Source: a virus. From it: a stretch of 64,000 nucleotides of DNA. The stretch lies in IMG/VR virus record IMGVR_UViG_3300032323_002905, positions 25,453-89,452 of that record. One strand, given 5' to 3'. Shown here piece by piece: positions 21,048 through 48,210 of this stretch (the stretch's first letter is position 1; the number at the start of each line of letters is the position of its first letter). A model generated the notes under the pieces. The model was not told the DNA's origin. It worked only from the letters and a program-made list of their open reading frames with translations, and did no database searches. Position numbers and translations under genes: made by a program.

Positions 21048-22724
21048 TTAGATAGTGTTTAATCCTTGGATGTAGATCTTACCATAAAATTCTGGTCTTA
21101 ACATTTTCTTAGCGTAACGAGTCAATAGACCTTTACGTGGTGTAAATGTATCTGGGTCGTACACAAGTGGAGTCATAATTAATGGAACATATGGAGCAAA
21201 TACAGCACCAGCTTCTAAGAATTGTGAACCTCTGTAACCTAATAACATGATGTTTTCAGTCATGTAAGGGTTTTTGTAAACTGTGTAACGGCCATTTAAT
21301 TGACCTGCTTTTTGTACACCGAAAGCGTATTCCATTTGAGCAGCATCACCATTGTTAGTAGAAGCAAATCCTGGGATTGATTCTAATACTGTAGCTACAG
21401 TTGGAGATGTAACAATAAAGTTAGCACCACCTCTTAAAGTTAATTGGTGAATTTTGTTGCTTAATTTTTGGATTTTAGTTCCTAAAGTTTGGAACCATTG
21501 GCCTTGTGTGTTGTAGAACGCTGAACCACCAGTTGAGAAAGTACCTGTACCTGGATTGTAAACGTTGTTGTTGATTGTTGACCAATATTCAGTACCTGCT
21601 GCTGCGTCTTCGATCAACATATCTAAGATTTCAAGGTCAATTTCCATTGAAATGTACTCAGACATGATGTTTGTTACTTCAGCTTCAGCATCGATATTTT
21701 GGTAAGCAGCTAAATCTTGTGAGAATTCAGGTGTCCATACTGCTTTCAATTTCTTGGTTTTAGCAGTGATGGCTTGTGATTGCATTTTCACGTTGATCTC
21801 AGGGATAACGATAGTAGTGTTTGATGCCGCGTTTGGAACTGCGAATGAAGACGAATCTTCAAAATCACCTACATTATACGGACTCATTTGAGTAGCTTTG
21901 TTATACTCAATTGTATAAGCACCTGCTGGAGCGATTGTAGCTGTTGAAGCACTTACAAAGAATGTAATTGTATTGTTAGTGTAATCAAATGTAGTAAATT
22001 GTTGTAAGTTGTTAGCAGCTGTAATTGCTGAACCTGACAAGATAATGAAACCTCTAACAGCATCCATATCAAAGTTAGGGATGTTTGTAGAAGCACTAAC
22101 TAAAGTAATTGCTTTGATTTGACCTGCAGCAACTGAAGCTGAGTAATCTGAATCAAAGTTAGTTGTAGCTAATGTACCTGAAACAATAAGTGAACCAGTT
22201 TGGATTGTAATAGCTGATGATGAGAATTGGTTGGTAGAGTAAGTAAAACGACCTGTTCCGTACAAACCACCTGCTGGAGCTGGAGTAGCAAACGGGAATT
22301 CACCTGTTGCGTTTCTGTTACCATACAATGAACCACCTACTGAAAATGGATCTTTAGCTGTTCCGTATTGGAAATCTAAGAAGAACACAAGACCTGAAGG
22401 CATTGACATTGGCTGAACTGAAACAAATTCTTTTGCTGCAATTTGAGCAAATACTTTACGTACTAAAGGTAAAGCGATACCAGCCCAGTTTTCTGATTGA
22501 CCAACAGAGAATGAACCTGCTGATGAACCACCACCTGTATCTGATTGTTCCATAACTAATTGCTTAGCTTGGTTTTCTAATAATAAAGACATGTTGTTTG
22601 CCTCTACATTTGTTAAGCCTTCTAATAGACCCGTTTTGTTCCATTTAGAAGACAATTTAGCTGCATCGCTTTGGAGTGATTTCCAAGGATTAGCTGATTC
22701 TAATAATGATTGAATTGTACTCAT
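21048..22724 (-). CDS. Major capsid protein (T4 gp23-like)
   Basis: LLENQ, LPLVRKV, VSVQPM..PSGLVF, AKTKKLKAVWTPEFSQDL, FAPYVPL and FTPRKGLLTRY motifs. Confidence 0.95.
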   Translation of the reverse strand: MSTIQSLLESANPWKSLQSDAAKLSSKWNKTGLLEGLTNVEANNMSLLLENQAKQLVMEQSDTGGGSSAGSFSVGQSENWAGIALPLVRKVFAQIAAKEFVSVQPMSMPSGLVFFLDFQYGTAKDPFSVGGSLYGNRNATGEFPFATPAPAGGLYGTGRFTYSTNQFSSSAITIQTGSLIVSGTLATTNFDSDYSASVAAGQIKAITLVSASTNIPNFDMDAVRGFIILSGSAITAANNLQQFTTFDYTNNTITFFVSASTATIAPAGAYTIEYNKATQMSPYNVGDFEDSSSFAVPNAASNTTIVIPEINVKMQSQAITAKTKKLKAVWTPEFSQDLAAYQNIDAEAEVTNIMSEYISMEIDLEILDMLIEDAAAGTEYWSTINNNVYNPGTGTFSTGGSAFYNTQGQWFQTLGTKIQKLSNKIHQLTLRGGANFIVTSPTVATVLESIPGFASTNNGDAAQMEYAFGVQKAGQLNGRYTVYKNPYMTENIMLLGYRGSQFLEAGAVFAPYVPLIMTPLVYDPDTFTPRKGLLTRYAKKMLRPEFYGKIYIQGLNTI

Positions 22725-22749: not shown

Positions 22750-23820
22750 TTATTTAATAATTCCTGCTATTTTTTGCATTCTTGTGAATGTGTCATTAAC
22801 TTCTACAATAGATGTTTTTGCTGTTGGCATAATACCTGTTGTTTTAGATGCTAAACTAGTTTTTAATGATTCGTTAACATGTGATTTAGAAGTTTCTTTT
22901 AAACCTTCTGATAATGTTTCGAATACTAATTTAGTTTCTTTTACTGTTGATGCTTTATCAAATGCATTTAAAACCTTTACTTTTTGTGATTCGGTTAAGT
23001 TTTTAGCTTTGAAAATTTTGTTAGTGTAAAGTAATTTTGCATTTAACAAATTAACTTCATTGATGTCAGTTCTCATAGTAGCAATAGTTGACATAGCTTC
23101 TTCTAACTCTTTTTTAAGTTTAGTTATTTCTTCTTTGTCTTTTTTGTCTTCTTTGTCACCTTTTTTCTTAGCTTCATCTAATTCGATTTCAGCTAAAATT
23201 TCATCAATTGAAATTTCTTCTTCTTCACTTTCCATTTCTTCGCCTTCTTCTTCACCTTCCATGCCTTCACCAGCTTCTAATTCACCAGCTTCAACCATGT
23301 CTTTAATTACGTCCTCAATAAATGATTTTAATTCTTCTTCAGTCATGTCTTCGATGTTGATTTCTTCTTCAGTTTCAACTTCTTCTTCACCTTCAGCTTC
23401 ATTAAGATCTTTTTTGTCTTCGTCTTCTTTAGCCTCATTCATGTCTTCATCTTTTGATTCTTCCATGTCTGCTTCTAACTCAGCTAATAATTCATCAAGA
23501 TTAAGTTCATCTAATTCTTCTTCAGCTACATTACCATGAGCTGTTGGACCTTTAGGGTCATTAATTAAACCTTCTTCTTCTTTGACTTCTTTGTAGCCCA
23601 TTAAGTTTTCTTGTTCTTTAGAATACATTTCTTCCATATCTTCCATTTCTGCTTCTTCCATATCCATTTCTTCCATTTCTGCAAGTTTAGCTGATAGCAT
23701 AGATTTTAATTGTGGAGTAAAATGTTCTTCAAGAGCAGCTTTTGCGCTTGCTATTGCTGTTTCTTTAACAACTTTAGCATCTTCGATTGCTTCTTTAAGC
23801 AAATCTCTGTTTTTACTCAT
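22750..23820 (-). CDS. Prohead core / scaffold protein (T4 gp22-like)
   Basis: Highly acidic coiled-coil protein between protease and capsid genes with many L/I/M-x-E sites. ATG at 23820 (MSKNRDLLKE) is preferred over the track's GTG at 23850, which lies inside a hairpin. Confidence 0.8.
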   Translation of the reverse strand: MSKNRDLLKEAIEDAKVVKETAIASAKAALEEHFTPQLKSMLSAKLAEMEEMDMEEAEMEDMEEMYSKEQENLMGYKEVKEEEGLINDPKGPTAHGNVAEEELDELNLDELLAELEADMEESKDEDMNEAKEDEDKKDLNEAEGEEEVETEEEINIEDMTEEELKSFIEDVIKDMVEAGELEAGEGMEGEEEGEEMESEEEEISIDEILAEIELDEAKKKGDKEDKKDKEEITKLKKELEEAMSTIATMRTDINEVNLLNAKLLYTNKIFKAKNLTESQKVKVLNAFDKASTVKETKLVFETLSEGLKETSKSHVNESLKTSLASKTTGIMPTAKTSIVEVNDTFTRMQKIAGIIK

Positions 23821-24021: not shown

Positions 24022-24627
24022 TTAAAATAAAGGACATGACCCGTTAGCACATAAAATATCAGTAATAATTGAATTAATTTTACCATATTGATTTGTACTA
24101 GGAATATATGATTCATTTAAGTTAGTTGGTTGCATCCATGAACCTGGGTTAGAAGGTGTTGAAACAAAATCCCAACATAGTAATTCAAAGTCTTCTTGTA
24201 CTTCCATTACATTACCTCTTTGTTCTAATGAACCCATTCCTCTTGATGATACACCTACTGTGATGCCACTTTCAATTAATGCTTTTAAAATGTTGCCTGA
24301 TGGAGTAGGTAAAATTTCAATTAAACCCATTACATTATCTCCATCCCACCAGCATTTTTTAATATTATGTGAAACATTTTTTAAGTTGATAACTGAAGAA
24401 TCCGGATGATCTAATTCGCCTAATGCTCTGTTTTCACGAACAGATTCCATATAGCGATTCATTTCACGTTCCCATAATTCTTTAGCGTAATATCTACCAT
24501 TACCGTTTTTTACTTCGGCGGTAGCTAATACACCTTCTACTAATATGTTACCTCCAGGATTAGTTCCTTCAGTTAACCTAACAGCTTTAGGAGAAAATAA
24601 TTGTGTTTCAATTAATACTTGTCTCAT
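24022..24627 (-). CDS. Prohead core protease (T4 gp21-like)
   Basis: KNGNGRYY, ALGELDHP, VSH, GVSSRGMGS and DFVSTPS motifs. Confidence 0.95.
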   Translation of the reverse strand: MRQVLIETQLFSPKAVRLTEGTNPGGNILVEGVLATAEVKNGNGRYYAKELWEREMNRYMESVRENRALGELDHPDSSVINLKNVSHNIKKCWWDGDNVMGLIEILPTPSGNILKALIESGITVGVSSRGMGSLEQRGNVMEVQEDFELLCWDFVSTPSNPGSWMQPTNLNESYIPSTNQYGKINSIITDILCANGSCPLF

Positions 24628-27419: not shown

Positions 27420-29297
27420 TTACTCTCTAATTTGGGATTCATCTAATAGCGAATCTCCTGGTTTTTCTTGACTAAATACTAATTTTTTATCAACTTGTTC
27501 AAACAAACGTTTATTTCTTGCAAAAGCTGATTTAGCGTTTTCTAAAGCAAACGGTTTAGATGTTGACTTACCATATCCTGGTTGGTCATCAGATTTCATA
27601 TCTTTAACACCTAATCTATCACGACCTAACGCGCTGTCTTGTGTATTAATATTAGATACTTTTTCTTTTGGACGACCTAATTGTGTGTCATTATTATATC
27701 CTGGTGGCAATTCACCTTCTGGTCCACCGTTTTTACTATATAAACTAGCTAAATCATGTGGTGTACCGTATGATTTACCTGTTTCTACTGGATCATTACC
27801 TTCTTCTCTAATTTGAGCGATTCTAAATTCACGTTTTGCATCTTCAATCATCATATCTCTATATTCATCATATGAATCTTCAGAGAATCTGAATACATTG
27901 TCATAAACCCAATCAGTAGGCATTAATTTAGTTTCAATAATATTTTTAGCTAAATCAACTTTTTCCTTCATTAACATGATACGTTCTTGATCGTATATAA
28001 TAGACGGTGTAGTTAATGATAACTCAAAGTTAGTTAATTCTTCGTTAGTATAACCTTGAACATATAAATGTACTAATGCAATTTTATATAATTCTGATAA
28101 TGTAATACGTTGAATACGATCAATTGTACGAGCAAAACGAATATCTTCTGCTGCTAATGTTGCTTTACCTTGTAAGTCTTTATCATAACCTAAAAATGCT
28201 TTAGGTACTTTTAATGCTGCAAATAACTTATCTCTTAAATATGCGACATCTTGAATACCATCATAATCTAAACCTTTAGTATTTTCAATACGTGTTGCTT
28301 GGTCATTACCTCTTACTGGAATGTAAAAATCTTCTAGTAAGTTTTGCATGTTATATTTAACATTATATTCACCTGTCTTTTGATCCATTAACGGAGTACG
28401 TTTCATTGAACTAATAGTTTTCTGCATAAATGCTTCAACTTCATTAGGTGGAATAGAACCAACATTAATAAAGAAAGTACGTTTTTCTGGTGAACGAACT
28501 ACACGATGGATTAACATCGCATCTTCCATTAAAGCGTATTGTTTATATAAACGACGAGCTGGTTCTAGATAAGATCTACCATATGGTAAATAGTTAACAT
28601 CTGTAATTAATCTAAAGTGAGCCACCTCATAATTTTCAAAGAAAATACCTGGTTCGTTTTGACGACCTAAATTAGGTGTGTTATAATAACCATCACCTGA
28701 TAAAAATCCTTCTGGTCTAAATTGGAAACGAACTGAAGCTGGTTTGTCTTTATCATAATTTTCTTGTCTTTCAATATGATATGCTGTATATGGAATAACA
28801 TTATATACACCAAATTTTTCAGCGATTTCTAATCTTAAGAAAAAGTCACCATATTTACACATTTGACGAATCCAAGACCATAAATTAAATTCAATGTTTA
28901 ATACATCATAAAATAAATTATATAAAATTCTTTGAATATTTTCGTCTGATGAACGAATAGATAATACTTCACCCATATCATCTTTTAATGTAGATTCATC
29001 AGCTACAATATCTAATGCTGAACCCACAATTGCATCCTGATCCATGATATCATAGTCTGAATATAATTGGGTACGTAAGTATTGGTAATTTAAATTTAAT
29101 TGTTGTCCATAAAGTGATGATGCATTAGTTGAATAAATTCTATTGTATCTATCCATTAATGAGTTAGTAGCGATATCACCAGTTTGTTGAATGGTGTTAA
29201 CGTCCATCACTTTTAATTGATTACCACCCTGATTTCTCATCACTACATCAGTAGAGAACAGTCGTTGTAATCGTGAAAATAAGCCTTTGTCTGCCAT
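27420..29297 (-). CDS. Portal protein (T4 gp20-like)
   Basis: LMEDAMLIHRVVRSPEKRTFFINVG, LEDFYIPVRG and KLFAALKVP motifs. Confidence 0.95.
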   Translation of the reverse strand: MADKGLFSRLQRLFSTDVVMRNQGGNQLKVMDVNTIQQTGDIATNSLMDRYNRIYSTNASSLYGQQLNLNYQYLRTQLYSDYDIMDQDAIVGSALDIVADESTLKDDMGEVLSIRSSDENIQRILYNLFYDVLNIEFNLWSWIRQMCKYGDFFLRLEIAEKFGVYNVIPYTAYHIERQENYDKDKPASVRFQFRPEGFLSGDGYYNTPNLGRQNEPGIFFENYEVAHFRLITDVNYLPYGRSYLEPARRLYKQYALMEDAMLIHRVVRSPEKRTFFINVGSIPPNEVEAFMQKTISSMKRTPLMDQKTGEYNVKYNMQNLLEDFYIPVRGNDQATRIENTKGLDYDGIQDVAYLRDKLFAALKVPKAFLGYDKDLQGKATLAAEDIRFARTIDRIQRITLSELYKIALVHLYVQGYTNEELTNFELSLTTPSIIYDQERIMLMKEKVDLAKNIIETKLMPTDWVYDNVFRFSEDSYDEYRDMMIEDAKREFRIAQIREEGNDPVETGKSYGTPHDLASLYSKNGGPEGELPPGYNNDTQLGRPKEKVSNINTQDSALGRDRLGVKDMKSDDQPGYGKSTSKPFALENAKSAFARNKRLFEQVDKKLVFSQEKPGDSLLDESQIRE

Positions 29298-29316
29298 TTT
29301 ATTATATGTTATTAAT

Positions 29317-32388: not shown

Positions 32389-32409
32389 GTTATATTTTTC
32401 TGATAAATA

Positions 32410-32940: not shown

Positions 32941-32992
32941 ATATTATAATGTATATAAAGTCTCTAACAAGACCAAGTTGTAATTAATTTGT

Positions 32993-33244
32993 TTAAACTC
33001 TAGCACCTGCTGCTTTACCGGCTGGTGATTTGAACCATGGTAAACCTTCACGTTGTTTACAATGTTCTTTCCATGATTTTTCAGTGTACTTAATACCATA
33101 TAAATAATACTCACGTTTTTTTCTTTCACCTTGAGGTATTAACGCTGGTCCATCCCAGTTATGATACTTACCTTCCCAAACGTATGCGATTGTTCCGTCT
33201 GCTTTAGTTAATTTTTTAGTTGGTTCAAATTTTTTATTTTCCAT
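32993..33244 (-). CDS. Small protein with HxxDGPA motif
   Basis: 83 aa with GKYHNWDGPALI..EYYLYG; preceded by a promoter-like element. Confidence 0.7.
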   Translation of the reverse strand: MENKKFEPTKKLTKADGTIAYVWEGKYHNWDGPALIPQGERKKREYYLYGIKYTEKSWKEHCKQREGLPWFKSPAGKAAGARV

Positions 33245-33249
33245 ATAAT

Positions 33250-33281
33250 TAAATATAACATCAAATCAGCGGGAGGTCAAA
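33250..33281 (-). promoter_or_regulatory. Bacteroidetes-type -33/-7 promoter
   Basis: TTTG-N20-TATATTTA, 5 nt before the ATG at 33244. Confidence 0.6.
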
Positions 33282-33282
33282 C

Positions 33283-33978
33283 TTATTTGTACAATTTTAA
33301 TGTTCCACTACCTATTTCATAATTAGATAATTCATATATTACATATGATTGGTTTTCAATCCAATCACCTGTGTTGATATATCTAATACCATCTATAGTT
33401 TTGTCTATTGGTGTATGAATATGTCCACAAATAACAGTATGGCAGTTTCGTTTTTTAGCTTGTCTAACCATTTCCTGTTCAAAATCAATCATAAATGAAA
33501 CAGCAGCTTTAACATTATCTTTTAAATACTTAGATAAACTTGTTTTCTTATTAATTTTTTTTAATAGTCTATCAATAACAATAGCAGCATCATAACCAAT
33601 TGAACCTAACATACCTAACCAATGCATTTTAACAATACCATCATATTTGTCTCCATGACAAAACCAAATACCACCTTCAGTAAATTCATCTACTATTTTA
33701 ATATTACCTAATTGCATAGGTGTATATTTTCTTAAGAATTCATCATGATTACCTGATATCCAAATAATTTCTTTTTCTTTAGATATTTTAAATAAGTTAC
33801 GTATTACTCTGTTATGATCCTCACTAAACTTCTTATATCGTTGAAATAACCAACCATCAATAATATCGCCTACTAATATTAAGCGATCATATTCCTCAGT
33901 TTTAAGTAGATTTATGATGGCTTTAGTATTACAACCTTTAGAACCTATATGTAGGTCAGATATTACTAATGTTTTCAT
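33283..33978 (-). CDS. Calcineurin-like metallophosphoesterase (LpxH/YbbF-like)
   Basis: SDLHIG, GDIIDGW, GNHD, HGD, GHIH and NTGDW motifs. Confidence 0.9.
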   Translation of the reverse strand: MKTLVISDLHIGSKGCNTKAIINLLKTEEYDRLILVGDIIDGWLFQRYKKFSEDHNRVIRNLFKISKEKEIIWISGNHDEFLRKYTPMQLGNIKIVDEFTEGGIWFCHGDKYDGIVKMHWLGMLGSIGYDAAIVIDRLLKKINKKTSLSKYLKDNVKAAVSFMIDFEQEMVRQAKKRNCHTVICGHIHTPIDKTIDGIRYINTGDWIENQSYVIYELSNYEIGSGTLKLYK

Positions 33979-33979
33979 A

Positions 33980-35293
33980 TTATTTTAATAACGATTCAGC
34001 AACATATATTCCATGAGCACCACTAACTGTTATACCTCTTGCACTTAATGCGTCTCCAACAAAATGTACATTTGGGTATTTAGTTAATGCTAAATTAGTA
34101 TAATCAACTAATGGTTCTGGTGATAAATACTTTACTTCAGGAATATATATACCCCAATCATCACCTAATGTTGGGAATACTTTTTTCATATCTACTATAA
34201 AATCTTCAATATATTTAAAATATCCTTCCATAACTGGTTTAACAACATTAGTTAATGTATCTAAACTAATTGGAGTTGAACTTACTACATTTTTTTCTGA
34301 TGTATCAGATGGTGTACGAGATGGACTATAATACAAACCAGTTCCATTTGATTGTAATTTATTTACAACATCCCTAGACCAAGTAAATGGATCTTCAATA
34401 TCCTTAATTTCCATAATAATACCAAAATTAGTCATTCCATTTAGATATTTAGGATCTTTTTTAGCGTGACCATTATAAGTAACATCACCATATGTTTCTT
34501 CTACAGCAACATAAGCTGCATTATTATTTGTACAAAACGAACGTAATGAAACACCTTTATCATCAAATTTTCTATATAACTTAAAGTCATATGAAATGTC
34601 AATTAGTTTTTGGAAGTGGTGTTGTGGTGCCTCGAACCTACAGCCTATTTGAACTGATTTAGGTTCGTCTGGGAGTTCATATTGGTTGGCTAATTCTTGA
34701 GCAAAATCAATACCTGATTTACCTACAGCAAAAATAAGTTCATCATATGATAATACTTTTACTATCTCACTAATTGGAGGACCTTCATACTTTAATTCAT
34801 TAATATCAAAATCTATACTTGTAACTTTAGATTTCCAAATAAATTTAACACCTTTCTCAACTAAATAATCGTACCAATTTTTAGCAATTTCAGATAGATA
34901 ATCTGTACCTACGTGCCATACAGGAAATAAACGTAAACCAAAATATGGTTTAATAAAATCAGGTTCAGCTTCTGGATTTGAACATTGTACTTCTTCAGGT
35001 TTAGGATGGAAACGTTTAAAATTGGTAATAACTTGATCCATTAATTCCATTGCTTTTTCCTCACCTGTATACTTAGATAACTGACCACCAATAGCTGTAT
35101 GGTAAGTTAGTTTGCCGTCTGACCAACCTCCCGCACCTAACATTCCTGTCATTACTTCTTCAGGTAAGCGGTTATATGGATCTTTACCCATATCAATAAT
35201 AGTAATTAAATTACCATCATACCCATTATCTACTAATTTAGTTGCAGCATTAATGCCTGCTACTCCGGCTCCAACGATTACAATTTTTTTCAT
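33980..35293 (-). CDS. FAD-dependent oxidoreductase
   Basis: VIVGAGVAG Rossmann motif, GAGGWSDGKL, RSFC and HFVGD. Confidence 0.9.
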   Translation of the reverse strand: MKKIVIVGAGVAGINAATKLVDNGYDGNLITIIDMGKDPYNRLPEEVMTGMLGAGGWSDGKLTYHTAIGGQLSKYTGEEKAMELMDQVITNFKRFHPKPEEVQCSNPEAEPDFIKPYFGLRLFPVWHVGTDYLSEIAKNWYDYLVEKGVKFIWKSKVTSIDFDINELKYEGPPISEIVKVLSYDELIFAVGKSGIDFAQELANQYELPDEPKSVQIGCRFEAPQHHFQKLIDISYDFKLYRKFDDKGVSLRSFCTNNNAAYVAVEETYGDVTYNGHAKKDPKYLNGMTNFGIIMEIKDIEDPFTWSRDVVNKLQSNGTGLYYSPSRTPSDTSEKNVVSSTPISLDTLTNVVKPVMEGYFKYIEDFIVDMKKVFPTLGDDWGIYIPEVKYLSPEPLVDYTNLALTKYPNVHFVGDALSARGITVSGAHGIYVAESLLK

Positions 35294-35298
35294 ATATT

Positions 35299-35330
35299 TT
35301 AATATAATTAATTTTTATTTAAAGGCCAAA
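35299..35330 (-). promoter_or_regulatory. Bacteroidetes-type -33/-7 promoter
   Basis: TTTG-N20-TATATTAA, 5 nt before the ATG at 35293. Confidence 0.55.
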
Positions 35331-35335
35331 CTAAG

Positions 35336-35407
35336 GTGGCCCACCTTTTTTTAGGGTGAGCCACTACTTCACAATATTTTTATTAGTCGACAGGCAATGA
35401 ATCTGTC
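35336..35407 (-). other. Intergenic two-hairpin element (terminator or small structured RNA)
   Basis: GACAG-N9-CTGTC and GTGGCTCACC-N9-GGTGGGCCAC stems in an otherwise AT-rich gap. Confidence 0.5.
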
Positions 35408-35425
35408 TATATGTTAAAAAATTTT

Positions 35426-35896
35426 TTAGATTTTTTTAAATGCTTCACCTTCTCTATATTGAGGGTAATATGTTTTTCTACCATCTACATCTGAAATTTC
35501 CCATGCTGGAATATTATTAGGTTCTACATTTCCATTATACATAAAATTTCCTTCTAATTTAGTTGCTTTTACAATTTTACCTGGGATGAATTTTTGTTTC
35601 ATTCTATCAAATACTTCAACTTTATCACCTGGTTTTACAGTTGGCCCTGATGCTTGTAACATATCAAAATATGCTTCACTATCTTCTAAGTATTCTTGAT
35701 GTTCTTCATTACCAAATTCTTCGTCAGGATCAACTTCATTTTTTACCATATCCATAACTTTTTCTCTATTCCATCCTGGGTTAGCAGACATCATACTTTG
35801 GTAAAATGAGTTTGATTCTTTATTGATTTGGTTTTCAGTAATAATACCCGCTAATTTTTGCATGCGAGCTAATTGTTCGTTTAATATTGGTTTCAT
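35426..35896 (-). CDS. Putative internal head protein with RMQKLAGII leader and SH3/KOW-like C-terminus
   Basis: Leader is nearly identical to that of ORF 42414..43295; contains VKPGDKVEVF. Confidence 0.7.
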   Translation of the reverse strand: MKPILNEQLARMQKLAGIITENQINKESNSFYQSMMSANPGWNREKVMDMVKNEVDPDEEFGNEEHQEYLEDSEAYFDMLQASGPTVKPGDKVEVFDRMKQKFIPGKIVKATKLEGNFMYNGNVEPNNIPAWEISDVDGRKTYYPQYREGEAFKKI

Positions 35897-36153
35897 TTTT
35901 TATATATCTTTAATTTTAAAGTACCTGTACCTTTAATGGCTCTATGCCATTCATGTCTTGGTATAAATATTGGTTGGTTTATAGAAGTTGGCAATTGGTT
36001 TTCAAGTTGTAATTGCCAATTTGTTTTACCTATTACTTCAACTGTTCTATCTTCATCATCACGATGCCACATTAGTTCAATTGGGTCTATATTTTCGTTA
36101 AATTCACGAATAATATATTTGTCTGTAACTTCTATATCTTTATATGGCCTCAT
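35893..36153 (-). CDS. Small cupin-fold protein
   Basis: WHRD..E and IFIPRHEWHRAIKG metal-binding cupin motifs. Confidence 0.7.
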   Translation of the reverse strand: MRPYKDIEVTDKYIIREFNENIDPIELMWHRDDEDRTVEVIGKTNWQLQLENQLPTSINQPIFIPRHEWHRAIKGTGTLKLKIYKK

Positions 36154-36757
36154 TCATATCATAATAAAATGAATCTCCATCTTCAGTTACCCATCTATCA
36201 GATTGGTTTTCAACTGATGGTAATTCAGTGTCTACTTTAAATTGTTTTAAATCTTCAGGTAATTTTTTAGTTACCCAATTTGAATCTTTCCAAAATAATC
36301 TATTATTTGGTTGACACAATAAATATCCATCATCTGCCTTAAATATATGTCCACATTTATAGTCTGATGGTTCATCACTATATGGATTATCATACCAATC
36401 TACAGTAAACATATAAGTTCCCCAAACTTTGCTTCCGTCTCTTAAGACAATTTGAGCTCTATGATATAATAAAAAATCATATTCTATAACTGATACATTA
36501 ACTGAAAAACAATCCCATAATTGTTTAAAATTAAATGGAATATCATTTTCTGGAATTTTAGTGTAGATTTCAGATATTGGAACTCTATTTCTAACCATTC
36601 CATCATCAGTCATAACATGAAATGTTAATATTTTTCCGGAACATGATTGTAGTCCAAAAACATAAACATTTAAAAATACTTCTGAATCTTTTTTATTTTT
36701 AGTAAAATATGATTTACGAACTAAAGCTTTAAAACTTGGAATATCCGCGTTTAACAT
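36140..36757 (-). CDS. Hypothetical phage protein
   Basis: 205-aa ORF with QLWDCFS, YMFTVDW and QPNNR; overlaps its neighbour. Confidence 0.75.
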   Translation of the reverse strand: MLNADIPSFKALVRKSYFTKNKKDSEVFLNVYVFGLQSCSGKILTFHVMTDDGMVRNRVPISEIYTKIPENDIPFNFKQLWDCFSVNVSVIEYDFLLYHRAQIVLRDGSKVWGTYMFTVDWYDNPYSDEPSDYKCGHIFKADDGYLLCQPNNRLFWKDSNWVTKKLPEDLKQFKVDTELPSVENQSDRWVTEDGDSFYYDMNEAI

Positions 36758-36772
36758 ATTATTTTTTATTAA

Positions 36773-37429
36773 TTATTTATTTTGTATTTCTAATCTCTCT
36801 TCCGCGGTTTTGTAATCTACTACTCTAAAAAAATCATTAATATAATTTTTTCTTTGAGATTTGTGTTTTAAATAATAAGCATGTTCCCAAACATCCATAG
36901 CAATTAAAATTTTACCTTTAAAATCTTTATTAAGATATGGATTATCTTGATTAGCATAAGATTCTATAACTAATTTATTTCCTTTTTGGATTAAAAATAC
37001 CCAACCTGAACCAAATTGTTTTAAACCAGCTTCTTTAAATTTTTCTTTAAATTCGGAAAATGAGTTAAAGTTTTTTTCTAATAGGTTTTTAAAATTTGTT
37101 GAAGGTGCTTTGTAATCAGGTGTCATATTTTCAAAATACAAAATATGATTATAAAAACCACCACCATTATTTCTAATAATATCATTTTTAGGATATTTAC
37201 CTAATATAATTTGGATAGCTTGAATTTGATCTTCGGCATTTACTTTAATAGATTTTTTATCTAATTCATCATTAAGTTTATCTGTGTATCCTTTAAAATG
37301 TTTATCAAAATGCTCTTCCATAGTTTCCTTATCTATGTAAGGTTGAAGAGAAGTGTATGAATAACTTAATTTAGGTACTTTAAATTTTGTATCTTTTGCT
37401 TCAGTTAGTAATTGAATAAGATTAATCAT
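36773..37429 (-). CDS. sod: Fe/Mn superoxide dismutase (Mn-type signatures) with extra N-terminal leader
   Basis: HFDKH, NNGGGFYNH, FGSGW, ANQDNP and DVWEHAYY motifs. Confidence 0.95.
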   Translation of the reverse strand: MINLIQLLTEAKDTKFKVPKLSYSYTSLQPYIDKETMEEHFDKHFKGYTDKLNDELDKKSIKVNAEDQIQAIQIILGKYPKNDIIRNNGGGFYNHILYFENMTPDYKAPSTNFKNLLEKNFNSFSEFKEKFKEAGLKQFGSGWVFLIQKGNKLVIESYANQDNPYLNKDFKGKILIAMDVWEHAYYLKHKSQRKNYINDFFRVVDYKTAEERLEIQNK

Positions 37430-38072
37430 TTTTCATTTTTTTAAATGGGGCATATCCTGAACCATATGGTGCTGATCTGCCAGATTGTGGATCTGATGTT
37501 TCTTGTGTTAAATCTCTATAGTTTTGAGATGGAGGAAATGTTCCCATCTTTTTTTTAGCTTGTTCCTTAGTTTTATAAGGTCCAAATTCTTGTCTAATAC
37601 CTGGAGCAAATGGATTATCTTGAATATAATAGTATTTGTCTCCTCTTTTTTCAATAGCTCTATATCTACTTTGACCTCCAAAACCATTTTTTTCATTTAC
37701 ATCTTTAAATTCTTTTAATTTATTCAAGCGTTCTGTTTTCTTTTTAGATGCTTCTTTTTTAGCTGTGATGTATTCTAATCCTTTTTTTAAGCGTGCTTTT
37801 ACTTCAGGATCTTTTGCTTTACCATAAGCGGCTCTAACACGTTGATGAATTAAATTAATAATTTGTGATTGTCTTTTATGTGGTTTTGATTGAAATGATG
37901 ATTTAGATAAAGTATCTTTTATATCTTGAACAGTTTTAAATTTTATACTAACAGTATCATTTGGATTTTCATCAGTATATAAACGACGACCTGATCCTTT
38001 AGGTTTTTTACCTGTACCTACTTTAGGATCACCTTCAGTTATTTCTTTTAATATATCAACTAACTTAATCAT
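37422..38072 (-). CDS. Basic hypothetical protein with leader motif
   Basis: MIKLVDILKE leader, LYTDENP domain, and a second module after VNE. Confidence 0.7.
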   Translation of the reverse strand: MIKLVDILKEITEGDPKVGTGKKPKGSGRRLYTDENPNDTVSIKFKTVQDIKDTLSKSSFQSKPHKRQSQIINLIHQRVRAAYGKAKDPEVKARLKKGLEYITAKKEASKKKTERLNKLKEFKDVNEKNGFGGQSRYRAIEKRGDKYYYIQDNPFAPGIRQEFGPYKTKEQAKKKMGTFPPSQNYRDLTQETSDPQSGRSAPYGSGYAPFKKMKND

Positions 38073-38440
38073 TATGATATAGTCCAGGTTTTAACATCAC
38101 GTGCTTTTTCTTTTAATTTAAAAGTAACTACACCACGAATTGATTTAATATCTTTTTCTACTTTAGTTACAATATTAGCTGTATCATTTAATCCTTTAGG
38201 GAATGGTGATGGATCAATTTTAATATCTAAATAAGCGTATTCATATTTTGATGATGGATTACCTGATTGATATTCTTTATTATTAACAATAGTAACACCT
38301 AAAACAGCTCTAACGTCAGATAAAATGTATTTCATTTTAGCAACTTGAGGATTGATAACTAATACACCACCAATGGCTAATACCTTTTTTGATGATGCGT
38401 ATTCTTCTTTAATAAGTTGTTTTAGTTCTGATTTTTTCAT
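38072..38440 (-). CDS. MKKSELKQLI-leader cassette protein 3
   Basis: 122 aa; shared leader, unique body. Confidence 0.75.
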   Translation of the reverse strand: MKKSELKQLIKEEYASSKKVLAIGGVLVINPQVAKMKYILSDVRAVLGVTIVNNKEYQSGNPSSKYEYAYLDIKIDPSPFPKGLNDTANIVTKVEKDIKSIRGVVTFKLKEKARDVKTWTIS

Positions 38441-38442
38441 AA

Positions 38443-38718
38443 TTATTTTAAATCATCTATTAAATTCTGCATCTCTTCATCTGCAGGTCCACGATAACTA
38501 AAAGTATATGTTCCTTTTAAGCTTTTATCATCATAATAATTATTATTAGATACTAACTTAAAATCTAAATTTGGGTAATTGTTTTTAATATACTTTATTT
38601 TATCTTCTATTTCAGGGGTAAGTTTTTGAATTAAAATATTACCTGAAGTTCTAGTATTTTCTTTTAATATGTTAGATATTTCTTCTCTAATAAGTTGTTT
38701 TAGTTCTGATTTTTTCAT
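38443..38718 (-). CDS. MKKSELKQLI-leader cassette protein 2
   Basis: 91 aa; shared leader, unique body. Confidence 0.75.
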   Translation of the reverse strand: MKKSELKQLIREEISNILKENTRTSGNILIQKLTPEIEDKIKYIKNNYPNLDFKLVSNNNYYDDKSLKGTYTFSYRGPADEEMQNLIDDLK

Positions 38719-38720
38719 AA

Positions 38721-38993
38721 TTATTTTATTTTAAATACTACTACGTCTTCTTCAGAACGCATTTTAGCTAATTTACCAAGGTATTTAGTTCTAACTACTT
38801 TATTAATTATATTTATTTCTTTGTTAGGTTCATCGTCTAAATAAATTTTAATTTTATCATTTCCGTCTGCATTAACATGAGCATATTTTACTCCTGCTGC
38901 TTCAACATCTTTTCTAAAATCATCTACTATAGATTCTTTTAATATTTTACTTATTTCTTCTTTAATAAGTTGTCTTAGTTCTGATTTTTTCAT
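38721..38993 (-). CDS. MKKSELRQLI-leader cassette protein 1
   Basis: Start moved to the ATG at 38993 by homology with the two downstream leaders. Confidence 0.75.
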   Translation of the reverse strand: MKKSELRQLIKEEISKILKESIVDDFRKDVEAAGVKYAHVNADGNDKIKIYLDDEPNKEINIINKVVRTKYLGKLAKMRSEEDVVVFKIK

Positions 38994-39004
38994 AATTATA
39001 AGTA

Positions 39005-39796
39005 TTACCAAAAACCGGTAAAAGTAGTTTTAAATCCTAACAAGTTTGCATAACGAGGCAATCTACATGACCAGTAACGTGCTGTTGTTTTATCTTTAGC
39101 TTGTGGGCAATTCATTCTATCTGAAAATGCTTTACGTGCCTTAGGATTGTTTAGTTTTGCTCTTAAAGCTCCACCAGCCATACCAAATGATACCTTTTTA
39201 ACTTTTTTAGTTTTAGGATCTTTAACATAAACATAGAATTTTTTAGAACCACCACGTTTTGGTTTTCCTAAATCTACATCTTTACCTTGATATTTAGCTT
39301 CATATACTTGGTCAAATTCATCTCCTAAACCTTCATAATCAGTTGACCAATTATTATCTCCACAATTAGTACAAGGTCTATCTAAATCTTCATCATACCC
39401 ATGTTCACCACAAGTTGCACAAACTGCATCTCTTCCTTCAGTTAATATTTCCATTAATGGTAAATCTAAAGGTACAAATTCACCTTCATATTTTGCCCAT
39501 TTTCCGATATCTGTAGTTTCGTATAATTTTTTATCAGTACCTTGTAACTCAATAATATTGTTATTCCACAACATTCTTGCTTCAGTCAATAATTTTTGAT
39601 GAGCAAAACTACCCGGACGGTATATATTCTCAGTAAGCTGTATTTTACTGTCTATATGGTAACGCATTGCCTCAGATATAGCCATGTTATACTGCTTAGA
39701 CTCAATGAGTAAAGGCGGTGTATTGCAAGATTTACATGAGTCAGTTACTTTGTAATTTTGTAAAGTTTCTGAGATAAGTTGTTTTAGTTTATTCAT
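39005..39796 (-). CDS. Modular protein (leader, Zn ribbon, basic Cys-containing C-terminal domain)
   Basis: CATCG..CTNCG ribbon and KKFYVYVKDP..VSFG..RYWSC domain, separated by L-x-E sites. Confidence 0.75.
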   Translation of the reverse strand: MNKLKQLISETLQNYKVTDSCKSCNTPPLLIESKQYNMAISEAMRYHIDSKIQLTENIYRPGSFAHQKLLTEARMLWNNNIIELQGTDKKLYETTDIGKWAKYEGEFVPLDLPLMEILTEGRDAVCATCGEHGYDEDLDRPCTNCGDNNWSTDYEGLGDEFDQVYEAKYQGKDVDLGKPKRGGSKKFYVYVKDPKTKKVKKVSFGMAGGALRAKLNNPKARKAFSDRMNCPQAKDKTTARYWSCRLPRYANLLGFKTTFTGFW

Positions 39797-39807
39797 GATT
39801 ATAAATA

Positions 39808-40776
39808 TTAACCAAATATAGCTTCAGGATCTATAATGATAGCTCCTTGATTAATAGCTGAGTTATCTAATATTGTTTTAGAGTCTGCTTTTGATAATTT
39901 ATCTTGAGTAATTTGAGTATATTTAATATCACCATTTTCAGTGACATTAACTATATAACCACCATCACCTGGTTTTTCTTTAATTTTAGTAGATATGATT
40001 TTTTTAATCATGTTAGCTGACGCGTCATCTACTGAGAAATCACTAGATAAATTTAATTTGTTTATAAGTTCATCTACTTTATCAAATATATTTTTAATTA
40101 ATTGATATCTAGATGATAATTCTCTTAATTCTGAACTTGCGCTAAAATCTCTAAGACTTTCAAATGCGTCAATGATATCAGATCTAGTAAAACTTAATGG
40201 ATTAGATTTTTTAGATTTAGCACTATCTTTTTCTAAAGATGATACTAATGAATTTAATCCAAATAATGTATTTAATAAACTTAAATTATTAGCGTCTGAA
40301 CTAAATCTACCTAAAGTAATTTTTTTAGCATTGTATGCTTTAACTTCTACTCCAATACCATCAGCGTATAAATCAGGACTACCACCTCCACGACCATCAA
40401 CTACATTATAATTTTTGCTTAATAACCAATACATGGCTATTTCACCATTACCTGATCCTTTAGTACCTACTTCAGAGTCTTCTTGTCCTTTTTTTGGTGG
40501 TGATATTGGATATAATTCTTTAAAAATTTTACCATCTTCACCACTTAAATTAACATTAACCCCTAGTCTATAATTTCCTTCAGGAAGAGGAAAAGAACCT
40601 AATTTTTTTTCTATTATTTTATTGTAAATTTCAGAAGAACCAGCTTCATTTAAATTTACGTTTAATTCTTTTAATATTTTTTCCATTAATAAAATATCCT
40701 GTTCATTTTTCATGTCAGGATATCCTTTAGGAAATTTATAAGAATATTGTTTTAAAAATTTATCGATTGGATCCAT
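39808..40776 (-). CDS. Putative PD-(D/E)XK nuclease-fold protein with N-terminal extension
   Basis: GNGEIA...PDLYADGIGVEVKA motif; N-terminal segment ends in LNE. Confidence 0.6.
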   Translation of the reverse strand: MDPIDKFLKQYSYKFPKGYPDMKNEQDILLMEKILKELNVNLNEAGSSEIYNKIIEKKLGSFPLPEGNYRLGVNVNLSGEDGKIFKELYPISPPKKGQEDSEVGTKGSGNGEIAMYWLLSKNYNVVDGRGGGSPDLYADGIGVEVKAYNAKKITLGRFSSDANNLSLLNTLFGLNSLVSSLEKDSAKSKKSNPLSFTRSDIIDAFESLRDFSASSELRELSSRYQLIKNIFDKVDELINKLNLSSDFSVDDASANMIKKIISTKIKEKPGDGGYIVNVTENGDIKYTQITQDKLSKADSKTILDNSAINQGAIIIDPEAIFG

Positions 40777-40778
40777 AA

Positions 40779-41246
40779 TTATACAGTTGGTTCTTCAGCA
40801 GGAGCTTCTGTAGCTGCTTCATCACCTGAATCTTTAAATGATGCGTTTGCATCTTTTGAAGCGCCATATGATAATAATCTAGCTATAGATTCTGTTGCTC
40901 TACCTTCGTCCTTTATATCATTTAACCAATATTTTTTACCTTCTGATTTACAAATCCAAGTAACATCATCATATAGTAAGTAAAAGAATTGATTATTTGC
41001 TAATAATATTTTAAATGTTGTTGGTTTAGGTGCTATCCATTGTATTTCACTAACAAAATCTTTATATTGAACTGTTAGTAATTGAATAATAGCATCACGT
41101 AATGATGGGAATTTAGCTAAAATAGGGAACTTATCCAAATCTAAAGAAATATCTGTTTTAGGAACATCTAAATCTATTTTAGATTGGGCTTTGTAAACTT
41201 GTTTTACAATAGCACGTATTCTATTTTTAAAATCTTCTTTAACCAT
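40779..41246 (-). CDS. Hypothetical protein
   Basis: 155 aa with PKPTTFKI and an acidic tail. Confidence 0.75.
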   Translation of the reverse strand: MVKEDFKNRIRAIVKQVYKAQSKIDLDVPKTDISLDLDKFPILAKFPSLRDAIIQLLTVQYKDFVSEIQWIAPKPTTFKILLANNQFFYLLYDDVTWICKSEGKKYWLNDIKDEGRATESIARLLSYGASKDANASFKDSGDEAATEAPAEEPTV

Positions 41247-42412
41247 TATAGTCCTCTTTCTTCTTTTAAACGAGCTGCTTGTTTAGCTGTTGGACCTTTA
41301 CCTCCACCTTTAGCTTTATATTGTGATACAGCACCTGCAATTGCAGTTGCTACTTTTTCAGATTTGCCTTGTTTTTTTAGTTTATTAACTAATTTTTCAA
41401 ATGTTTCATCTAATTTAGCTGTTTCTTTTTTCCAAAATCCTTTAGGTAAACCTTCATCCATTGGTTCTTCCATTGCCGGGACAATATCTTCATAGTCCTG
41501 CATTGACAATGTTTCTTTACTTTTGTTAATTTCAATAGCTTTTTCAGCTACATCATGTAAATCAACATCTGCTTTAGCGTCTTCACGAGCAAATTCTAAC
41601 ATACGGATAAATAAAGGTACATCCATAGTAACTGTATCTACCGCGTCTTTAGCTTCTGCTTCTTCTTCGTTTACTTCTTCTTTAACTAAACCAGCTTTAA
41701 GAACCTGCATAATAGCAAAATAAGCATCATCAACACCGTAACCGTAATCTTGAGCTACTTCTCTAATAAAGTCTTCTACTTTTTGTACTAATTCAGGATT
41801 AATATTTGCTTTTGATGCAAAAAATTTAGATTCTTCTTGAATCATAGCATCTAATGCTGGTTGTTTTTCTTCAAATTCTAAATAATGTTTAGCTTTATCC
41901 ATATAATCAGCAGCTAGATGAATTTTTTCTTGCCACCAATCAGGAAAATCAACTTCTTGATCCATTTGATCATACTTATCTAGCATTTTATATAAACCAG
42001 CAGCGTATTGAGCTATACGATAAACAGATGCTTTTAACATATCTGGTTCATCATCTTGATGACCTAAATCAATATCTTCATTTGCTGATTTTTTGATAAT
42101 GGCTTTTTGTAAAGCATCAGGTAAAGATTTTTGTTTACCTTTTAAAGCAGGATCATTATCAAATTCTTTTGAAAATTTCTCATCTACTGGACTCATAAGA
42201 GTCTTCTTAATCATTTCACGTACTTTATCTTTATTCATGTTTTCTGCTGTTTTTTTAGCTATATTAGTAGCACGTCCATACATTACTTTTTCAGCATCTT
42301 TACCATAGCGTTTAACTAATGATGATTTTTCTGATTTAAGTTGTTTAACAACTTCCTCACGTTTTTTTAATTCCGCCGGAGTTAATGTTTTTTCAGTGAT
42401 ACTTTGTTTCAT
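41246..42412 (-). CDS. Modular charged protein (putative processed internal head polyprotein)
   Basis: 388 aa; alternating basic and acidic modules delimited by x-x-E sites. Confidence 0.75.
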   Translation of the reverse strand: MKQSITEKTLTPAELKKREEVVKQLKSEKSSLVKRYGKDAEKVMYGRATNIAKKTAENMNKDKVREMIKKTLMSPVDEKFSKEFDNDPALKGKQKSLPDALQKAIIKKSANEDIDLGHQDDEPDMLKASVYRIAQYAAGLYKMLDKYDQMDQEVDFPDWWQEKIHLAADYMDKAKHYLEFEEKQPALDAMIQEESKFFASKANINPELVQKVEDFIREVAQDYGYGVDDAYFAIMQVLKAGLVKEEVNEEEAEAKDAVDTVTMDVPLFIRMLEFAREDAKADVDLHDVAEKAIEINKSKETLSMQDYEDIVPAMEEPMDEGLPKGFWKKETAKLDETFEKLVNKLKKQGKSEKVATAIAGAVSQYKAKGGGKGPTAKQAARLKEERGL

Positions 42413-42413
42413 A

Positions 42414-43295
42414 TTAGATATTATCTATAAAGTTTGATATATATTCTTTTACATCTTCTTTTTCAAATCCTTCTGTCATCCATTCTGTTCCTAAGATACG
42501 TAATGAATCATGTAACATTTTTAAAAGTCTTATATTAGCTAATCCTTCCATTCTATCAATAGCTTCAGGACTTATTTGTTCATTAATTGGAGCTGTATCT
42601 AAGATATGGGCTTTAGTAAAATAAGTAATTGTATTAGCAATTTGAGTGATTAATTTTTCATCACCTAATGCTTTTGCTTCAGCATATGCTGCTTGTAAGT
42701 TAGATTGAATACCTGATATTTCAGCTGATTCACCAGCCATCATATCTGATGCAGGCGCGTCAACTACTTCAGTATCATCTACTGTTATGTCTTCAACTTC
42801 TTTATCTTTTTTAGCTTCAGCTAATGGATCATAAGCACTGTCTGCGTCTGTTATATTTACATCTTTGTCTGAATCTTCATTTAATTCAGCTAAAATCATT
42901 TCTTTGATTTTTGCTTTTAAATCAGATTTAGTCATTTTACCTTCACTAGTTTTTTTAGCGTCATCTTTCATATCTTTTTCTAAAGCATCGATATGTGCCG
43001 CGTCATCTTTTTCAGCGTCTTTGTAATATGATTCTTTATTTTCTTTAAGTGGGCCATACCATTGATCTTCAAACTCATCAAGTTTAAATCCATTTGTAAA
43101 AGCAAGTTCTACCCAATCTTCATAATCATCATCTACACTTAAGTAACTTTTTACCTCTTCTTTAGAATATGGAGATAGTCCTTTAAATTTTTTATCTTTA
43201 AATAATGACTTAAATAATGACTCTGTTTGATTTTCTTTAATTATACCCGCTAATTTTTGCATGCGAGCTAATTGTTCATTTAATGTTGGTTTCAT
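42414..43295 (-). CDS. Putative internal head protein with RMQKLAGII leader
   Basis: 293 aa, acidic; leader shared with ORF 35426..35896; internal MTKSDLKAKIKE motif. Confidence 0.75.
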   Translation of the reverse strand: MKPTLNEQLARMQKLAGIIKENQTESLFKSLFKDKKFKGLSPYSKEEVKSYLSVDDDYEDWVELAFTNGFKLDEFEDQWYGPLKENKESYYKDAEKDDAAHIDALEKDMKDDAKKTSEGKMTKSDLKAKIKEMILAELNEDSDKDVNITDADSAYDPLAEAKKDKEVEDITVDDTEVVDAPASDMMAGESAEISGIQSNLQAAYAEAKALGDEKLITQIANTITYFTKAHILDTAPINEQISPEAIDRMEGLANIRLLKMLHDSLRILGTEWMTEGFEKEDVKEYISNFIDNI

Positions 43296-48209: not shown

Positions 48210-48210
48210 G

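Follow-up and report, generated by a model that had tools for sequence, protein, structure and literature searches.

The C-terminal peptide of the head scaffold protein of a T4-like phage, with the core RMQK(L/I)AGII, is probably (we place this at about 0.7) the docking end of the scaffold, which has been borrowed by cargo genes as a removable N-terminal tag for loading into the prohead. The source is an uncultured, T4-like phage of aquatic Bacteroidota with a genome of 89,452 bp (89 kb), of which the whole stretch analysed here, referred to as the window, comprises 64,000 nucleotides. The last 11 residues of its scaffold also open three unrelated small proteins of the same genome, and in tagged proteins of this kind a protease site always comes after the peptide. 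Due to this, a role as a clip-off tag is most likely, by which changeable cargo would be loaded into the capsid.

The head module of this phage is of the T4 type, with a gp23 capsid protein, an S77/gp21 protease and a gp20 portal in the T4 gene order, and the sequence-only reading, which had taken P22 as its frame of reference, was mistaken in this regard, as the head is T4-type and protease-processed. The features concerned, in window coordinates, are as follows.

21048..22724, minus strand: major capsid protein, gp23 family (Pfam PF07068, E 1e-73)
22750..23820, minus strand: head scaffold (core) protein, 356 aa, assigned from position, composition and synteny
22753..22809, minus strand: scaffold C-terminal anchor, last 16 aa, with an I-V-E release site before it
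24022..24627, minus strand: prohead serine protease, gp21/S77 family (Pfam PF03420, E 4e-32; phrog_207)
27420..29297, minus strand: portal protein, gp20 family (Pfam PF07230, E 1e-64)

The scaffold gene sits between the protease and capsid genes, matching the T4 order 21-22-23, and its product has a pI of 4.3, 104 D+E residues and 16 [LI]xE sites. The protein is assigned as the scaffold on gene position, composition and synteny, and no family model matches it: Pfam and PHROGs hold no family for it, BLASTP finds no similarity to T4 gp22, a profile search of PDB sequences with the scaffold returned nothing, and a Foldseek comparison of the scaffold-tail model with the PDB gave only generic three-helix bundles (E > 0.5). 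The scaffold end reads ...SIVE VNDTFTRMQKIAGIIK-stop. In the AF2 prediction for 70 scaffold tails, a three-helix domain is followed by a disordered tether, a helix at 107-115 and a non-helical AGIIK, which is modelled as coil, the last block having a pLDDT of about 79. The S77/gp21-family protease is the enzyme expected to cut L/I-x-E sites, this being the specificity of T4 gp21, which cuts after the site (PMC9026906). Sites of this type, like those of the cargo leaders, are also borne by the N-termini of the protease and of the capsid protein (three L-L-E sites within the first 50 residues of the latter), and the gp23-family capsid protein is a candidate docking partner of the peptide.

A motif HMM applied to the 89,452-bp genome detects exactly four copies of the core (21-24 bits; next best 2.5 bits), viz. 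those in the scaffold, in two ORFs of the window (ORF A and ORF B) and in a third leader gene. The core of the scaffold tail is thus common to the leaders of the tagged genes, whose features are listed below.

35426..35896, minus strand: ORF A, 156 aa, leader-tagged orphan, candidate head cargo
35828..35896, minus strand: leader of ORF A, codons 1-23, reading MKPILNE, then QLARMQKLAGIITE, then NQ
35844..35878: exact 35-bp repeat, copy 1, inside the leader coding sequence
42414..43295, minus strand: ORF B, 293 aa, leader-tagged
43227..43295, minus strand: leader of ORF B, codons 1-23, reading MKPTLNE, then QLARMQKLAGIIKE, then NQ
43243..43277: exact 35-bp repeat, copy 2
12117-12473 of the genome, minus strand, outside the window: third leader-tagged gene, found with the motif HMM

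Both ORFs open with MKP(I/T)LNEQLARMQKLAGII(T/K)ENQ, in which 21 of 23 residues are identical, and past residue 23 no similarity is seen between them (BLASTP E about 10), by which full-length paralogy of the two proteins is ruled out. The 35-bp string occurs exactly twice, with 0 matches in shuffled sequence. In each ORF an in-frame stop lies one codon ahead of the start Met, which is the first ATG to follow it, and therefore the peptide must be N-terminal. The leader of ORF A holds, besides the anchor core, the only two [LI]xE sites of that protein. ORF B is acidic (pI 4.5), is predicted to be disordered (the stored ESM Atlas model is poor, pLDDT 0.46) and has 9 [LI]xE sites; it is a member of a modular polyprotein family, the longer relatives of which (541-634 aa) have the same leader and the same C-terminal module. 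Pfam and PHROGs give no family for either ORF, comparison with the ESM Atlas yields nothing but viral hypothetical clusters, and the single-sequence AF2 model of ORF A (pLDDT 44) is unusable. The sequence-only reading had described the 35-bp identity, the shared leader followed by full divergence, and the reuse of a scaffold C-terminal peptide as an N-terminal leader on non-paralogous bodies, and all of these observations are upheld; its view that the leader is bracketed by cleavage sites agrees with the specificity of T4 gp21 (PMC9026906) and with the S77/gp21-family protease encoded by this phage.

When related genomes are searched for the motif, as that reading had proposed, the same pattern is found throughout the clade of phages. 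Ninety-five scaffold-like ORFs in public data carry the motif at their very C-terminal end, and a gp23-like gene adjoins in 88 of 93 contigs. Ninety-three of these ORFs stop at II or one residue on (II+K 60, II 30, II+N 2, II+S 1), the remaining two end within three residues of II, and in 84 of the 95 an [LIV]xE is found at -9 from the motif. The scaffold of the cultured Flavobacterium phage immuto ends in RWQKLAGIIK, and those of the more distant relatives Mel-JY01 and LR756508 end in RMKKLAGIVK and RMQKLADIS, respectively, with L-N-E preceding each. The L/I-x-E site lies between motif and body in both kinds of proteins, and it is found upstream of the motif in the scaffolds, whereas in the cargo it is downstream: II-x-E directly past the motif is seen in 28/28 cargo proteins from IMG/VR and in 143/145 profile matches, with E at +9 in 101/101. 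The protease-site Glu is invariant in cargo but absent from the scaffold ends. The offset of the upstream site is also unequal, being -9 in scaffolds vs -6 in leaders, which speaks against the borrowed-tag reading.

A leader profile built from 24 leaders and searched against 1.84 billion representatives (E <= 1e-3) matches 1,561 protein clusters, and the motif lies within the first 20 residues in 134 of the best 147 matches. The bodies behind these leaders are highly varied. The 28 proteins at IMG/VR loci with an N-terminal motif fall into 25 body clusters, and 118 sampled representative bodies form 79 families (median pI 4.5). A Pfam domain is present in only 3 of 117 bodies, and for 20 IMG/VR cargo proteins Pfam gave sub-threshold matches only; a few bodies are enzymes, viz. 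an HD plus AAA_33 kinase, a RecA/UvsX-like protein and a TnsA-like nuclease. Of 50,697 deposited phage records, only four have the leader, all of them immuto, and in Flavobacterium phage immuto it is gp083 that carries the tag. Some complete relatives have the motif on the scaffold only, another point against that reading, and N-terminal copies were looked for and not found in Mel-JY01 and LR756508, where it is on the scaffolds. A full-text literature search for the motif string returned no papers, and papers mentioning the immuto phages are, by their titles and abstracts, not concerned with head cargo; within these sources we found no published description. The exchange of cassettes is observed in the relative L035, whose DNA is 87-94% identical (about 90%) to positions 29133-35416 of the window. 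At the position of ORF A the same leader is retained in this phage, but the body that follows it, of 349 aa, is unrelated, and the turnover of genes at a single locus is here seen in action.

From this anatomy we infer the following course of packaging, binding, cleavage and ejection. During prohead assembly, the tag would hold the cargo at the site normally occupied by the scaffold C-terminus. This site would most likely be on the gp23-type capsid protein, at its inner face or N-arm; the alternative, an equally legitimate partner, is the scaffold core. The activated S77 (gp21-type) protease would cut at L/I-x-E between anchor and body, and the cut would free the scaffold for degradation and the cargo body inside the head. 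Bodies that lack further sites, such as that of ORF A, would remain intact and might be ejected along with the DNA, and multi-site bodies, as in ORF B and its long relatives, would be cut into modules. The conserved DNA of the leader may double as a homology anchor for the swapping of bodies.

[quoted passage not shown] The CTS on these proteins is covered by more recent reviews (PMC9026906, PMC9958956). The tag described here is similar to it in being a short N-terminal propeptide that is borne by rapidly evolving, unrelated proteins and is removed by a gp21-family protease at L/I-x-E (as predicted here from sequence only), and in belonging to a T4-type head module, the present phage having an S77 protease, a core protein that is gp22-type by position and a gp23-type shell. 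In both systems the tag also resembles a scaffold end, as the N-terminus of T4 gp22 (MLKEQLIAE) resembles the CTS. However, the leader consensus, MKKQILSEEFRRMQKLAGIITE, matches the scaffold C-terminus and not the T4 CTS; the address here copies the C-terminus of the scaffold rather than its N-terminus and has no similarity to MKTYQEFIAE, and in T4 the gp22 C-terminus is not repeated elsewhere. Further, the tag here is of 22 residues with two or three sites, the bodies are acidic and not basic, and the scale is far larger, with more than 1,500 clusters.

Following the proposal made for the T4 CTS, the same logic could apply with the peptide binding to the scaffold core, the scaffold C-terminus then being a self-association element and the tagged proteins co-polymerising with the core. 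An affinity for the core has been ascribed to the T4 propeptides, the internal proteins are co-purified with gp22, and the T4 tag is thought to bind the core and not the shell, which counts against docking to the shell (PMC9026906); in addition, the scaffold is extremely acidic (pI 4.3, 104 D+E), as against a basic and hydrophobic peptide. However, we consider core binding rather unlikely, as a release site located beside the anchor better fits detachment from a stable shell than from a core that is degraded, and the contact known from 80alpha is made by a C-terminal helix and hook ending in RIIK (PMC5644958), which the predicted ...AGIIK end resembles. The 80alpha scaffold and SaPI1 CpmB share this helix and hook with its RIIK motif (Dearborn et al. 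2017, PMC5644958), and the peptide has been shown to bind the HK97-fold capsid protein (PMC5644958). In that system, as here, a terminal peptide of 16 residues, with which the scaffold ends, is common to different proteins, and it forms a helix and then a short hook ending in ...IIK, which in the present case is predicted. However, the copy there is on the parasite's size-redirecting scaffold and stays C-terminal, whereas here the peptide is found at the N-terminal end of cargo and is putatively cleavable, and the likeness put forward is one of predicted shape.

Two other systems offer partial parallels. In herpesviruses, the assembly protein and the protease precursor share a C-terminal tail that attaches to the major capsid protein and is freed by cleavage at the M-site. 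The arrangement is similar in having a C-terminal anchor with a protease site immediately upstream and in the anchor being common to more than one protein; however, the sharing there results from nested in-frame genes and not from a portable leader, and neither N-terminal copies nor diverse cargo are present. Encapsulin cargo-loading peptides dock diverse cargo inside an HK97-fold shell, and this docking by a short terminal peptide is what is proposed here. However, those peptides are usually C-terminal, have another consensus and are not removed by a protease, in a system without scaffold, portal or DNA, whereas the present tag is N-terminal, of different sequence and flanked by protease sites, unlike a retained peptide of the encapsulin type.

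It is also unlikely that the tagged proteins are disposable auxiliary components of the core or scaffold, degraded and expelled at maturation in the manner of T4 gp67/gp68. ORF B does resemble the scaffold in being acidic, predicted to be disordered (pLDDT 0.46) and endowed with 9 [LI]xE sites, and the median pI of 4.5 of the bodies points in the same direction; since the bodies are mostly acidic and the T4 internal proteins are basic, some of them may therefore be transient core components and not ejected cargo. However, ORF A is without any [LI]xE outside its leader, a few bodies are enzymes (the kinase, RecA/UvsX-like and TnsA-like proteins noted above), and the bodies show extreme diversity and are exchanged among near-identical phages, which is a signature of accessory genes in an arms race and not of assembly parts.

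In regard to the origin of the leader, the rare codons CGC (4.8% of Arg codons) and GCG (6.3% of Ala codons) occur in each of the three leaders, and the probability that two further copies would share the core codons by chance is about 1.4e-6, by which chance or codon bias is rejected as the origin of the 35-bp identity. However, it will be incorrect to regard the tag as recently copied from the scaffold gene, whose core codons are unlike those of the leaders (5 of 27 core bases differ). The leader family is also an old one with a very wide distribution (1,561 clusters), and the leaders of ORF A and ORF B already differ at 5 codons (3 synonymous and 2 non-synonymous). Because the core codons vary between phages, a role of the repeat as a nucleotide-level functional element is rejected; the residues are invariant, and selection on the motif appears to act at the protein level. 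That the peptide is unrelated to head assembly, being a membrane-targeting or chaperone-binding helix, or a regulatory or recombination element at the nucleotide level, is highly improbable: it is amphipathic and 35 bp of its DNA are identical within the genome, but the scaffold beside the capsid gene ends with the same peptide in about 90 phages, codons vary freely across phages around constant residues, the protease-site Glu is confined to cargo as described above, and the DNA upstream of the leaders is not conserved.

With regard to the preferred reading, viz. the borrowed docking end, the cargo address is the scaffold's own end and the release site lies between anchor and body in both, which provides a direct hypothesis for the loading contact, and this could be tested in the cultured phage immuto through its tagged gp083. 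The more than a thousand orphan families flagged by the leader profile become candidates for packaging and possibly for injection, and the 22-residue tag could serve as a tool to load proteins into T4-type capsids. A broader reading, put forward here only tentatively, is that the peptide of the scaffold tail serves as a universal, portable hook for docking to the T4-type shell, by which well over a thousand unrelated families reach the capsid interior, that the cargo consists of injected, fast-turning-over effectors, many of them polyproteins cut at I-x-E linkers, and that recombination is anchored by the conserved DNA of the leader and by that of the E-N-Q-I-N-E linker. If true, this would represent a natural plug-and-play system for protein delivery in an abundant and almost uncultured clade of aquatic phages, and it would identify what directs proteins into T4-type proheads, a determinant long sought. 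As a separate observation on its leaders, the same phage has a second, T4-like leader class (MKKSELKQLIKEE).

ORF A and ORF B, two genes of this phage, share the N-terminal leader MKP(I/T)LNEQLARMQKLAGII(T/K)ENQ, and the core of this leader, RMQK(L/I)AGII, is also present at the C-terminus (...S-I-V-E-VNDTFTRMQKIAGIIK) of the candidate scaffold, as the sequence-only reading had proposed. The features concerned are as follows (window coordinates unless marked genome):

21048-22724, major capsid protein (gp23; PF07068, E 1e-73)
22750-23820, minus strand, candidate scaffold
24022-24627, prohead protease (gp21, S77; PF03420, E 4e-32)
27420-29297, portal (gp20; PF07230, E 1e-64)
29325-30902, large terminase, T4-type (PF03237, E 2e-13)
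35426-35896, minus strand, ORF A, leader-tagged, 156 aa
42414-43295, minus strand, ORF B, leader-tagged, 293 aa
genome 12117-12473, minus strand, third leader gene, outside the window, 118 aa

The 35-bp string reported as an exact repeat occurs exactly twice (35844-35878 and 43243-43277), both times within codons 1-23 of the two ORFs, and 0 of 100 dinucleotide-preserving shuffles contained a match. Past residue 23, BLASTP detects no relatedness between ORFs A and B (E ~10), which rules out full-length paralogy and bears out the earlier claim that they start alike and then diverge completely. Each of the two has an in-frame stop one codon 5' of its Met, and the leader peptide must therefore be N-terminal. 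An HMM of the 12-residue core detects exactly four copies in the 89,452-bp virus record of which the window is a part (21-24 bits, versus 2.5 bits for the next match), and it is by this means that the third leader gene, starting MKKQLNEQFIRMQKLAGIITENQINE, was found.

All genes of this genome (G+C 30%) lie on one strand, and its head module is of the T4 type based on Pfam families. The candidate scaffold, an acidic protein of 356 aa (pI 4.3) with 16 [LI]xE sites, is encoded between the protease and capsid protein genes, viz. at the position of T4 gene 22. It matches no family model, and a BLASTP comparison with T4 gp22 shows no similarity; the grounds for calling it the head scaffold are therefore its position, its composition and the conservation of synteny. 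Among cultured phages, the nearest relative is Flavobacterium phage vB_FspM_immuto, with 56% identity in the capsid protein. Remoter relatives are Microcystis phage Mel-JY01, the uncultured phage LR756508 (484 kb) and Rhodothermus phage RM378. The head module also contains, between portal and protease, tandem 87-aa paralogs (MANIPAN...; 25464-25727 and 25739-26002), and in a close relative, with 96% identity in the capsid protein, about 570 extra bases (L065:4044-4614) separate the scaffold and protease genes, compared with 23988-23993 in the window.

The same arrangement is seen in other phages. The immuto scaffold ends in SRWQKLAGIIK and its hypothetical protein gp083 starts MKKQILSEQFRRMQKLAGIITESQ; the scaffold gene (L001:25626-26867; NC_055915 125626-126867) is annotated as a 'DNA polymerase phi-like protein', but its position and C-terminal motif identify the product as the head scaffold. 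The scaffolds of Mel-JY01 and LR756508 end in L-N-E-SNNVVERMKKLAGIVK and L-N-E-DVEMKSRMQKLADIS, and no N-terminal copies were found in these two genomes. A scan of IMG/VR with a degenerate DNA pattern for MQK(L/I)AGII gave at least 119 stretches, and with this genome and immuto the set comprises at least 129 motif instances. Among the matches listed, 95 of 129 instances are at the extreme C-terminus of ORFs of 220-510 aa, 28 lie 7-13 residues past the start of small ORFs and 6 are internal; a gp23-like gene, 42-69% identical to that of the window, adjoins the motif-ending ORF in 88 of 93 C-terminal contigs, and several N-terminal loci adjoin a same-clade portal or terminase gene. When a profile built from 24 leaders was compared with 1.84 billion representative proteins, 1,561 clusters were obtained at E <= 1e-3 (117 at E <= 1e-10), and in the best 147 of these the motif is inside the first 20 residues in 134, most of the other 13 looking like start-codon miscalls. 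Of 50,697 phage records deposited, only the four of immuto carry the leader. Copy number varies between genomes, some having the motif on the scaffold only and others having three or more leader genes.

The consensus of 101 representative leaders is M-K-K-Q-I-L-S-E-E-F-R-R-M-Q-K-L-A-G-I-I-T-E-(N/S)-(Q/E)-(L/Y)-(N/K)-E, with no variation at F, M, Q, A, G and the Glu that follows I-I-x; past this Glu, conservation drops to noise level; the segment common to leaders and scaffolds is (F/V/L)-x-R-M-Q-K-L-A-G-I-I. T4 gp21 cleaves after L/I-x-E (PMC9026906). In the candidate cargo proteins I-I-x-E follows the motif in 28/28 of the IMG/VR matches listed and in 143/145 of the best of the census, whereas the listed scaffolds stop at I-I or I-I-K, without the Glu, and 84 of 95 have [LIV]-x-E at -9 from the Arg (density over the whole scaffold, ~16 sites per 356 residues). 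A protease-type site is thus present between motif and body in both kinds of protein. Leaders usually have an extra L-(S/N)-E at -6, and the suggestion that the peptide is bracketed by two cleavage sites (LNE and ITE/IKE) accordingly holds at the level of sequence; often (L/I/Y)-N-E also occurs five residues past the first site, in agreement with the site redundancy described for giant-phage propeptides. Beyond the leader, [LI]xE sites number zero in ORF A, seven in ORF B and three in the third leader gene. In this phage three L-L-E sites lie within residues 1-50 of the capsid protein, and the N-terminus of the protease reads MRQVLIE, as in T4.

The most economical explanation of these results is that the leader is a removable prohead-loading anchor copying the docking end of the scaffold, and that the protease would cut between anchor and body once assembly is done. 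Such a mode of action would be like that of the T4 capsid-targeting sequence (CTS). However, the T4 CTS resembles the N-terminus of gp22, and the C-terminus of gp22 is not repeated elsewhere in T4; here the address would come from the opposite end of the scaffold. By analogy with 80alpha, P22, T7 and SPP1, the favoured candidate for the binding partner is the capsid protein, but the scaffold core is a live alternative. Core localisation is still called unexplained in the reviews consulted. The 80alpha scaffold and SaPI1 CpmB, with a common C-terminal RIIK motif, bind capsid protein in a 'helix and hook' form (PMC5644958). In an AF2 model of the scaffold tail (70 aligned sequences, mean pLDDT 79), a three-helix domain is predicted with confidence and is followed by a low-confidence tether; residues 107-115 (DTFTRMQKI) are then predicted to form a helix, and the terminal A-G-I-I-K to be non-helical. 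Such an end would resemble the helix and hook, the likeness being one of shape and logic. No paper on the motif string was found in the literature.

As regards the origin of the leader DNA, a nucleotide-level function of the repeat is rejected, as among the matches listed motif codons vary between phages while the residues are constant. Recent copying of the tag from the scaffold gene was likewise not borne out: the core is encoded by CGC-ATG-CAA-AAA-TTA-GCG-GGT in each of the three leaders in this genome, whereas the scaffold uses AGA...ATA-GCA-GGA. Between the leaders of ORFs A and B, three synonymous codons have already diverged. CGC and GCG make up only 4.8% of Arg and 6.3% of Ala codons in the genome, and the probability of two further copies drawing the same core codons independently is ~1.4e-6. 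The 35-bp identity is accordingly put down to common descent of the cargo leaders or to gene conversion among them. The DNA 5' of the three leader genes is dissimilar. Contig L035 aligns with 29133-35416 (87-94% identity), but at the position of ORF A it encodes an unrelated 349-aa body (L035:7219-8265) behind the same leader, similarity resuming in the 69-nt leader alone (83%); this cassette exchange is direct evidence for body swapping.

The 28 listed IMG/VR leader proteins form 25 clusters, and the tally of fused bodies that had been suggested along with the motif search places 118 representatives in 79 BLASTP families (median pI 4.5). At E <= 1e-5, Pfam domains are present in only 3 of 117 representatives (RecA, TnsA-like N and DUF6576), PHROGs adding five single matches, and Pfam, PHROGs, ESM Atlas and single-sequence AF2 assign no function to ORFs A and B. 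The bodies may be ejected effectors or disposable core parts, and ORFs A and B may differ in this. Many leader-bearing relatives (P0003-P0054) are mosaics in which the same small modules recur in varying order, joined by E-N-Q-I-(N/T/Q)-E linkers that are themselves I-x-E sites. P0069, of 696 aa, combines an HD domain with an AAA_33 kinase and a tail, with leader copies between these parts, and appears to be a polyprotein or else adjacent tagged genes fused into one; its tail resembles the C-terminus of ORF 37422-38072 (DPQSG.SAPYGSGYAPFKK). Long relatives of ORF B (541-634 aa) have the same leader and C-terminal module as ORF B, while the middle varies. Most of them (P0026, P0056-P0078) end in (I/V)-N-E-(S/N)-MFPMLKRI(I/L)(K/R), a second, basic-hydrophobic end after a protease-type site that recalls the 80alpha RIIK hook, in place of which ORF B has a differing 56-aa tail.

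Many neighbouring genes of this phage bear a different, T4-like class of leader (MKKSELKQLIKEE and similar; class 2). Leaders of this class, such as MKKSELKQLI(K/R)EE and MINLIQLLTEA, occur at 38072-38993 and also at:

36773-37429
37422-38072
39005-39796
47646-48966

These leaders resemble the scaffold N-terminus MSKNRDLLKEA, as well as the T4 CTS and gp22 N-terminus, and due to this both scaffold ends seem to be used as tags. One class-2-tagged gene encodes an Fe/Mn superoxide dismutase (Pfam Sod_Fe_N/C), and in P0003 a class-2 leader is fused ahead of the RMQKLAGII leader. Proteins of 180-290 aa in contigs L017, L019, L022, L066, L077 and L117 carry a class-2-like helix at the start (e.g. 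ELRQLIRESI.EYIREIDE) and the motif at or near the C-terminus (RMQKLAGII near it in L019, L022, L077 and L117; a C-terminal tag with no capsid gene nearby in L017, L019 and L066), and possibly represent additional small proteins of scaffold type, or else cargo with two tags.
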